Shown here piece after piece: positions 41,501 through 44,500 of a DNA stretch of 64,000 nucleotides. The first letter of the stretch is position 1, and every line of letters starts with the position of its first letter. Position numbers: made by a program. Source of the DNA: Escherichia coli (lineage in GTDB: Bacteria; Pseudomonadota; Gammaproteobacteria; Enterobacterales; Enterobacteriaceae); assembly GCF_044324875.1 (NCBI RefSeq), contig NZ_CP172185.1; one strand, 5' to 3'.

Positions 41501-44500
41501 GTATTTCCTCTTTAAAGGCGATTTACATGCTGGTGAGATTGGCCCGGTTCGGGTAAATGGTCGCTGGGACGGTATTCGTCTGCGCGGTAACGCCTGGTGG
41601 CCTAAACAATCACTGACTGTATTCCAGCCGCTGGTGCCACCCGACTGGAAGATGAACTTACGCGATGGTGAACTGTATGCTCAGGTTGCATTTTCTGCTG
41701 CGCCTGAACAAGGATTCCGCGCGGGAGGGCACGGCGTGTTGAAAGGCGGTAGTGCCTGGATGCCAGATAATCAGGTTAACGGTGTCGATTTTGTCCTGCC
41801 TTTCCGTTTTGCTGATGGAGCCTGGCATCTGGGGACTCGCGGCCCCGTTACGTTGCGAATTGCCGAAGTGATTAATCTGGTGACAGCGAAAAATATTACG
41901 GCTGATTTGCAAGGGCGCTATCCGTGGACTGAAGAAGAACCATTGCTGTTGACTGATGTTAGCGTCGATGTGTTAGGCGGTAACGTGCTGATGAAACAAT
42001 TACGTATGCCGCAACATGACCCGGCGCTGTTGCGGCTGAATAATCTCTCATCCAGCGAACTGGTTAGCGCCGTCAATCCGAAACAATTCGCCATGTCCGG
42101 GGCATTTAGTGGTGCATTGCCGTTATGGCTAAACAACGAAAAATGGATAGTGAAGGATGGTTGGCTGGCAAATAGCGGGCCAATGACCTTGCGACTGGAT
42201 AAAGACACCGCAGATGCGGTAGTGAAAGACAATATGACCGCGGGTTCAGCAATTAACTGGTTGCGCTATATGGAAATTAGCCGTTCATCGACAAAAATTA
42301 ACTTAGATAATCTCGGTTTATTAACCATGCAGGCCAACATTACAGGTACCAGTCGCGTTGATGGTAAAAGCGGTACGGTAAACCTTAATTACCATCATGA
42401 AGAGAATATTTTTACGCTGTGGCGCAGTTTACGCTTTGGCGATAATCTCCAGGCATGGTTGGAGCAGAACGCACGTCTGCCGGGAAATGACTGTCCGCAA
42501 GGAAAAGAGTGTGAGGAAAAACAATGAAAATTTTACTGGCTGCGTTGACGTCATCTTTTATGCTGGTTGGCTGTACGCCTCGCATTGAAGTCGCTGCACC
42601 TAAGGAACCGATCACTATCAATATGAACGTTAAAATTGAGCATGAGATCATCATCAAGGCAGACAAAGATGTCGAAGAGCTGCTTGAGACTCGTAGCGAT
42701 CTTTTCTGAGGCGATGATGAAGAGAAATTTAATGCTGTGTTTTGTCATTAATGCCTTATTTAGCACCAGTGCGATGGCTCTGACGCTGAATGACGCTCGA
42801 ACTCAGGGGCGTGTTGGCGAAACGTATAATGGTTATCTGGTTGCATTAAAGGCGGATACCGAAACACAGATGTTAGTCAAAAGGATTAATGAATCGCGTA
42901 ATAAGAGCTATCAACAACTCGCCATGAAAAATAATCTGCCGGTTGCGGAAGTGGAAAAATTGGCGGGGCAAAAACTGGTAGCAAAAGCTAAGCCTGGAGA
43001 ATACATTCGCGGGATAAACGGGATGTGGTTGCAAAAATAATAAGTCGGTATTCGTCGAAAAAAATCTCCCTGGTTGCACCTCCTGAAATATTCAATATTA
43101 ACTGCAATGCTATTGAGAATTATTTTTCATTTAATTTCATATAGATGCCGATGATGAATGCTTCATTCACATGATAATTTATTTATTTCATGAATTAATT
43201 GCATTATTTAATTCATCGGTGTTATCGGATTCAATCTCAATTGCGCCATATTTTAAGTTGAAATAAATGCGTTAAAAATATAAATTAAAGAAAAGATGTA
43301 TTGACTTAATGAATAAATATATTCGCTAAATCAATATATTTATTCTGTTAAAAACAATATCCAGATTTCGAATATTTGTAACTATTTAACCCTGTGCAGT
43401 TTATTTGGGCTGCGTAATCATCTATTTATGAGGAATTTCATATGCAAAGGAAAAAATTGCTCAGTGTCTGTGTTGCAATGGCGTTAAGCAGTCAGACATG
43501 GGCGGCAGATACGTCGATAGCGGAAACATCGGATGAATCTCGTAAATCCAGCAAGATTAGCTGCCCGGCTAATATTAAATCACTAAGTAAAGAACAGCTA
43601 GAAAAGCTGCCGGCAGAGTGTAAATCAGTTGAAGATAATGAGTTATTACCCTGGGCTGCAGTGGGGCTGGCAGCGGCAGTCACAGGCGTCGCAGTATATG
43701 CACTCCACGATAATAATAATCATCATGACGATCCGTCTCCGGTGCCGGATGATGGCGGTGATACACCCGTCCCGCCGGATGATGGCGGTGACACGCCAGT
43801 CCCGCCGGACGATGGCGGCGATACACCCGTCCCGCCGGATGATGGCGGTGATACACCCGTCCCGCCAGATGATGGCGGCGACACACCTGTCCCGCCGGAT
43901 GATGGCGGCGATACACCCGTCCCGCCGGATGATGGCGGCGATACACCAGTCCCGCCAGACGACGGCGGTGACACGCCAGATGATGGCGGCGATGATACCC
44001 CGGACGACGGTGGCGATGACACGCCAGTCAAACACGATCCTGTGGTCTATAAAAACGATGTCACCTGGGATCAGGACGCGAAGACCCTAAAATTACGTGA
44101 TACCACCTTTACCTACGCCAAAAATGACGATGGCAGCTATACGCTTACCGGACCTGGCGGCACTACCACAATCGTGAAGGATTGGTTAGTCGACGAGGCG
44201 GCTAACACGGCTTCGTTCAATGGCGTCAATCCTGGCGGAACCTCCACCTGGCGCTATGACGAAGCGGGAAAAATCGAAATAATCATAGAGTCACTCACCA
44301 CCGCAGACGGTACAACTGGCGAACATTTCCATATTAACGATGCCACTATTACCGACCATGGCGGCAACATCGCCCTGAATGGCGGCGTTGTGATAAACGT
44401 TGACGGTAACGACATCACCCTGAACAACGACGGCAAAACTACCGCGATTGGTGAAGGTTCGGTGGTAGGTATTCTTACCGGTGATGATATCACCATTACT

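Follow-up and report, generated by a model that had tools for sequence, protein, structure and literature searches.

The AT-rich ydbL-ydbA spacer of an Escherichia coli strain lacking fea and paa genes nearby: probable 5' regulatory region of a BigA-like autotransporter allele in an alternative haplotype block

Introduction

The genes of Escherichia coli K-12 MG1655 run in the order ldhA, ydbH, ynbE, ydbL, feaR, feaB, tynA, paaZ, paaA-K, paaX, paaY, ynbG, ydbA, pdxI, ydbD, with 19.2 kb between the stop codon of ydbL (1446206) and the start of ydbA (1465392). In the 64-kb stretch of E. coli contig NZ_CP172185.1 that is analysed here, and that we refer to as the window, ydbL is followed by a 401-bp non-coding gap and then directly by a ydbA-type gene. 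Is this gap the junction that was left when a K-12-like chromosome lost its phenylethylamine and phenylacetate genes, or does it belong to the gene that it precedes? The initial annotation of this DNA placed the fea, tynA and paa genes between ydbL and ydbA of K-12, and the MG1655 annotation bears that order out. Heterogeneity of the paa locus, which lies between ydbH-ynbE-ydbL and ynbC-ynbD-azoR, is already on record (Goldstone et al. 2016, PMC4951805). The window concerns the same locus and presents one of its paa-negative states. We argue that a BigA-like allele of ydbA quite probably has its own, native 5' regulatory region in this spacer, which lies within an alternative haplotype block that is free of fea and paa genes.

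Position and composition of the spacer

The spacer (43041-43441) extends from the stop codon of ydbL, which ends at 43040, to the ydbA-type ATG at 43442, and we read it as the ydbA 5' regulatory region, on the + strand. These limits coincide exactly with those that had been proposed for an AT-rich spacer. Its GC content is 27.2% (72.8% AT), compared with 49.6% across the 64 kb. It is the GC minimum of the window, ranking 63 among 63,600 segments of 401 bp, with every segment of lower GC overlapping it, and just one other region of the window falls below 33% GC. Besides the spacer, two stretches alone stand out as AT-rich (~32-35% GC): 33696-34126, in the ompN-nifJ(ydbK) intergenic region, and 39600-39900, in the divergent promoter region of ldhA and ydbH.

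An alternative haplotype block

Identity between the window and K-12 is ~99% across hslJ, ldhA, ydbH and ynbE, and continues at that level until the start codon of ydbL. The last gene of this conserved left flank is ynbE (42524-42709, + strand), as judged by its alignment with K-12 (~99-100%), by sliding identity and by the collinear annotation of strain NY1601. From the ydbL ATG onward, sliding identity to K-12 is only 63-77% per 75-bp bin. Homology to K-12 stops at 43038 and resumes at 47369 (84%), followed by 48432-50415 (92.6%) and by the sequence from 51731 onward (97%). In the alignment to K-12 that had been suggested as a check, identity is thus ~99% up to the start of ydbL and ~67% through ydbL, and the spacer and the passenger region of ydbA cannot be aligned. 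The collapse of identity at ydbL and the late return of K-12 homology together mark out the divergent block, which comprises ydbL, the spacer and the passenger part of ydbA. By sequence comparison, the block (~42723 to 47400) is an alternative haplotype that stands in place of the K-12 ydbL-[feaRB-tynA-paa]-ydbA segment and is devoid of the phenylethylamine and phenylacetate genes.

How widespread is this haplotype? Of 5426 complete E. coli genomes, 114 (~2%) carry a spacer of the window type, with 91-99.8% identity, and in all six of the loci that were inspected it is flanked by ydbL and a gene of the ydbA type. In the same collection the K-12-type ydbL-feaR junction is found in 4158 genomes, paaA-E in 3154 and an O157-type ydbL-spacer-ydbA junction in 373; the locus that we designate L014 represents a further ydbL-ydbA allele. 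There are also ~1000 E. coli genomes in which feaR adjoins ydbL but paaA-E are absent. Searches of plasmid and phage collections with the spacer yielded no match. One of the 114 spacer matches sits on a record that is labelled as a plasmid; PLSDB has no match to the spacer, and a labelling or assembly error in that record is the probable explanation.

The left boundary of divergence from K-12 differs between haplotypes: it lies at the ydbL ATG in the window type, ~675 bp further upstream, in ydbH, in the O157 type, and inside ydbL in L014. Recombination around a variable block, whether old or imported, would be expected to produce variety of this kind. The ydbA upstream spacers that were examined are all 327-431 bp long and have 25-31% GC, and those of the window, O157, L014 and K-12 are mutually non-homologous, making at least four types. 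Alignments of the window spacer with those of K-12, O157, Nissle and L014 reveal no similarity that is significant (z<2). Comparison with the spacer of strain 4/4 does generate a weak local alignment (z=4.2, score 21), so that these two may have a short element in common. The published treatment of paa heterogeneity deals with the presence and absence of genes (PMC4951805), whereas here the paa-negative state belongs to a set of ydbL-ydbA haplotypes that diverge deeply from one another, and it differs from the simple deletion variants.

Has a K-12-type cluster been deleted?

Loss of feaR through paaY from a K-12-like ancestor, with fusion of the two K-12 intergenic regions, would leave precisely the order ydbL, spacer, ydbA, and deletions of the fea-paa cluster do happen in E. 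coli. As an account of the window it is nevertheless highly improbable, and we regard it as effectively refuted. A fusion of that kind should be recognizable in the spacer, but the latter has no significant similarity to either the ydbL-feaR or the paaY-ydbA intergenic region of K-12. The 19.2-kb segment has left no DNA remnant anywhere in the 64-kb window, and no homologue of a fea, tynA or paa protein was found there (tblastn, E<=1e-3); paa genes close by were also what the initial annotation had named as speaking against the K-12 gene order that it gave. Furthermore, the flanking ydbL and the 5' part of ydbA are just ~67-70% identical to their K-12 counterparts.

Genuine scars look different. 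Strain 4/4 (L013, 9499-10077) retains feaR' fused to 'paaY, THO-008 (H139) retains feaR' fused to 'paaX, and the Nissle type, which is K-12-like on both sides, has a clean junction with K-12 position 6271 joined directly to 25076. Like the window, these deletion variants have no paa genes between ydbL and ydbA; unlike it, they keep a K-12-type ydbL (~95%), a K-12-type spacer and, in two of them, gene fragments. Neither residual K-12-type sequence nor gene fragments were found at the junction in the window. What had been read as an AT-rich junction is, then, real as regards the adjacency of ydbL, spacer and ydbA, but it is not a plain junction, the spacer being unlike both of the K-12 intergenic regions.

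The ydbL allele

The left end of the block is a divergent allele of ydbL (42717-43040, + strand) that encodes 107 amino acids (Pfam DUF1318, E=4.5e-29) and ends with TAATAA. It is ~67% identical to K-12 ydbL in DNA sequence and 61% in protein sequence, with the drop in identity beginning at codon 3. The neighbouring ynbE is ~100% identical to K-12 despite the 61% identity of YdbL. The window YdbL shares 65% of its residues with the O157 allele and 64% with YdbL of Citrobacter amalonaticus; YdbL alleles within E. coli are as distant from one another as E. coli is from Citrobacter (61-66% at the amino acid level).

Does so divergent an allele still function? YdbL modulates the YdbH-YnbE lipid bridge, and alanine substitutions that abolish or reduce the function of K-12 YdbL have been mapped (preprint 10.64898/2026.03.16.712125). 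At these positions the window protein keeps L24, R28, E35, Y40, N58, R61, Y65, L68, N72, K86, L87, W104 and K107, the one exception being I79V. At positions that tolerate change it has E60S and R90K; the K-12 protein tolerates E60A, E60D and R90K (same preprint). Conservation of this pattern suggests that the window allele is probably functional. An allele with 61% identity in which the tested residues are kept may be of interest for research on the YdbH-YnbE-YdbL lipid bridge.

ydbA and its insertion sequences

On the other side of the spacer, the large adhesin gene that had been expected there is indeed present, the NCBIfam auto_BigA model and the Pfam BigA domains identifying its product as an autotransporter. 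The 1408-aa ORF that starts at 43442 matches auto_BigA with E=2.8e-174. The score of that match (1386 bits) lies below the 3400-bit cutoff, which makes YdbA a relative of BigA and not BigA itself. An intact allele is available for comparison in AR_0067 (6081 bp, 2026 aa) and in LHM10-1 (6066 bp), and the intact 2026-aa protein carries both Pfam BigA_N and BigA_beta (PF25784, PF25783), as befits the BigA/YdbA type.

In the window this gene is interrupted. Its 5' fragment (43442-47663, + strand), encoding a BigA/YdbA-type passenger, is cut by an IS1 (47664-48431, + strand) that is flanked by a 9-bp target duplication, ATGCTGGGG, at 47655-47663 and 48432-48440; the 3' fragment (48432-50299, + strand), encoding the beta-barrel end, lies in the segment 48432-50415 that is 92.6% identical to K-12. 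IS1 truncates the 2026-aa autotransporter after 1407 codons; NY1601, AR_0067 and LHM10-1 do not have this insertion. Since the element parts the passenger from the beta-barrel, ydbA is a pseudogene in the window genome. MG1655 also has an interrupted ydbA, in that case by IS2 and IS30.

Several other features of this neighbourhood deserve mention. Close to its N-terminus, YdbA has a proline-rich linker, PPDDGGDT(PV), that is encoded by 7.5 copies of a 30-bp tandem repeat (43744-43979); local GC content reaches 68% there, and this region aligns poorly between the ydbA alleles of the haplotype group. Between the ydbA stop codon and pdxI lies an IS256-family element (50416-51730; IS1414-like, with a 402-aa transposase). 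Its 8-bp duplication is CAACTCAT, and ETEC H10407 and a few other strains have an annotated IS1414 in the matching ydbA-pdxI interval. A second IS1 (54042-54809), in inverted orientation, is found inside ydbD, with no matching target duplication and with ~100 bp of the NY1601 sequence missing, which suggests an IS1-associated deletion. No genome of the complete E. coli collection covers at least 80% of 47000-52000, so the combination of IS1 and IS1414 seen in the window is not represented in that collection.

Promoter, conserved block and inverted repeat

If the spacer is the 5' regulatory region of ydbA, it should carry the signals for expressing that gene. The best sigma-70-like candidate in a consensus scan is TTGAAA-17 bp-TAAATT (43258-43286, + strand; 9 of 12 matches), from which transcription would be predicted to start near 43293. 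Both of its hexamers are the same in five variants of the haplotype. A Shine-Dalgarno sequence, GAGGA, can be read at 43430-43434 (+ strand), 7 nt before the ydbA ATG. A sigma-70-like promoter and a ribosome-binding site for ydbA are thus both in place, as matches to consensus only. No intrinsic terminator was found after ydbL, so read-through from ydbH-ynbE-ydbL is also possible.

The spacer is not uniformly conserved within its haplotype. In six sequences (the window and five other genomes), 3.4% of the columns vary in the promoter-proximal 145 bp (43297-43441, + strand), compared with 14.5% in the distal 256 bp (Fisher p=3e-4). The conserved block that column variability marks out in this way contains a perfect 13-bp inverted repeat, GAATAAATATATT-N9-AATATATTTATTC (43311-43345), which is a candidate operator or 5'-UTR hairpin. 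An inverted repeat of that length was reached in 2 of 500 dinucleotide shuffles; it is unchanged in five variants of the haplotype, and it lies inside a weak repeat of 21-bp period with three imperfect direct copies (43285-43345).

These features invite the thought that the spacer is mainly a dedicated device: an operator to which one particular dimeric regulator binds, or a hairpin in the 5'-UTR through which translation or stability of ydbA is controlled. The perfection of the repeat, with its 9-bp spacing, its setting within the 21-bp-period triplet and its invariance in the conserved block would all fit. Folding of the 150-nt proximal region as RNA is, however, not significantly better than that of shuffled sequences (z=-1.47), and searches with the Rfam 15 covariance models found nothing in the spacer, just two sub-threshold snoRNA chance matches, both of them outside it. 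The ydbA spacers of other haplotypes have no comparable palindrome. A device of this kind would, moreover, be compatible with H-NS and not exclusive of it. We think it unlikely that this is the main role of the spacer.

Coding of a small product by the spacer, such as a small protein or an sRNA, is a much poorer prospect and very improbable. K-12 has a 21-codon gene, ynbG, annotated at the equivalent position in its paaY-ydbA spacer, and the + strand of the window spacer holds ORFs of 31 and 39 codons; yet any stop-poor stretch of 400 bp can be expected to contain ORFs of that size, and these two lie in the variable distal part, with many substitutions and, in MB06232, a 5-bp deletion. A tblastn search with ynbG produced no match at E<=1e-3, which is a weak test with a 21-residue query, and the Rfam result bears on an RNA product in the same sense. 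A native 5' regulatory region of ydbA is the reading that we prefer.

Is the spacer silenced by H-NS?

The initial annotation saw in the spacer the typical appearance of an H-NS-silenced promoter region. For K-12 there is direct precedent: ChIP data sets show H-NS on its paaY/ydbA intergenic region, which is listed as a 385-bp 'promoter island' (Panyukov and Ozoline 2013, PMC3661553, Table 1). The window spacer occupies the same position, directly 5' of ydbA, and the two are much alike in size and composition (330-385 bp and 25.2% GC for the K-12 island, 401 bp and 27.2% GC for the window spacer). Both precede a variable autotransporter gene that is disrupted by insertion sequences. They differ in having no sequence homology (z<=2) and in what comes before them, the K-12 spacer following paaY and that of the window following ydbL; H-NS binding is documented for the K-12 island only.

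The general properties of promoter islands are partly found in the window spacer. It is an AT-rich tract that exceeds ~300 bp and has the lowest GC content in the 64 kb, and its neighbours are of the variable or horizontally acquired kind (ydbL and ydbA alleles ~67-70% identical to K-12, the type being present in 114 of 5426 genomes). An excess of promoter-like sites is not seen: a simple sigma-70 scan finds one site, compared with 3.0 +/- 1.4 in shuffled sequences, and in that test of promoter density the spacer fails, although the 'promoter island' class was defined with PlatProm. The H-NS high-affinity motif, TCGATAAATT, has four matches (<=2 mismatches) in the spacer, compared with 1.5 expected, an excess that does not reach significance (p ~0.07). 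Of the two properties that had been proposed for examination, curvature and AT content, the latter is extreme, but AA/TT phasing at the 10-11-bp helical period is not above that of shuffles.

H-NS is reported to repress autotransporter genes in UPEC (PMC3966885), and the resemblance of the window locus to H-NS-silenced upaC, ehaG/upaG and F9 fimbriae (PMC3966885 and its references) is that each has AT-rich DNA 5' of a large, patchily distributed and allelic surface adhesin; silencing has been reported for those genes and is putative for the ydbA of this haplotype. Transcription of ydbA increases 7.7-fold in an rpoZ mutant (PMC5811629). Composition, H-NS binding of the K-12 counterpart and H-NS repression of other autotransporter genes make silencing of the window spacer by H-NS plausible, as an extrapolation from those cases.

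A working model would run as follows. The spacer would carry the ydbA promoter, for which 43258-43286 is the best candidate. H-NS probably coats the spacer, as it does the positional counterpart in K-12, and the coat would keep the adhesin gene silent unless it is counter-silenced. An operator or a 5'-UTR hairpin that is specific to the haplotype may lie in the conserved proximal 145 bp, where the 13-bp inverted repeat is found. So understood, the locus is nothing out of the ordinary: variable, AT-rich and probably silenced adhesin loci are a known kind.

Origin of the haplotype

Either a gain of the fea and paa genes in the K-12 type or their loss in the window type could account for the difference between the two. 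One alternative to import of a foreign block takes the window to represent the original state, into which fea, tynA and paa were inserted later in the K-12-type lineage, with the divergence reflecting old ydbL-ydbA lineages. Three haplotypes that are otherwise unrelated (those of the window, O157 and L014) all proceed from ydbL through an AT-rich spacer to ydbA, the paa cluster is confined to 3154 of the 5426 genomes, and left breakpoints that vary by haplotype are what old alleles reshuffled by recombination should have. On the other hand, the window contains no tRNA gene, flanking direct repeats are absent from 42900-43600, and the fea/paa block of K-12 has no annotated transposase or other mobile-element gene at its two ends. 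Import from other taxa would explain the distances between YdbL alleles (61-66% aa) no less well. Outgroups give no polarity: a contig search with the window YdbL found two Citrobacter loci (64% aa), which, to judge by ORF sizes, seem to have no ydbA-sized gene beside ydbL. An ancestral empty state is accordingly a tentative possibility, somewhat doubtful on this evidence. The YdbL contig search identified no donor species. A genomic-island attachment site was also considered at this locus and rejected: the window has no tRNA, there are no meaningful direct repeats in 42900-43600, and no mobile-element gene is annotated adjacent to the locus in K-12 or NY1601.

A further proposal, which is more speculative and on the unlikely side, is that ydbL, spacer and ydbA form a co-inherited allelic cassette at genus-level divergence. 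Diversifying selection on the YdbA surface antigen, or else repeated import from other taxa, would maintain its polymorphism in E. coli, and the window version would have its own palindrome and 21-bp-repeat device for some regulator. Were that so, YdbL, a gene of core function, would be evolving as the hitch-hiker of an antigen locus.

Significance

The practical value of these findings lies mainly in correct annotation, and no major question is changed by them. Since the absence of fea and paa genes is not the outcome of a simple deletion, comparative or metabolic inference that treats this strain as 'K-12 minus paa' would misdescribe it. Beyond that, the locus is a clean case of an AT-rich adhesin 5' region whose length and composition persist over at least four allelic classes while its sequence does not, and a pattern of that kind is what a silencer that reads composition, such as H-NS, would predict.
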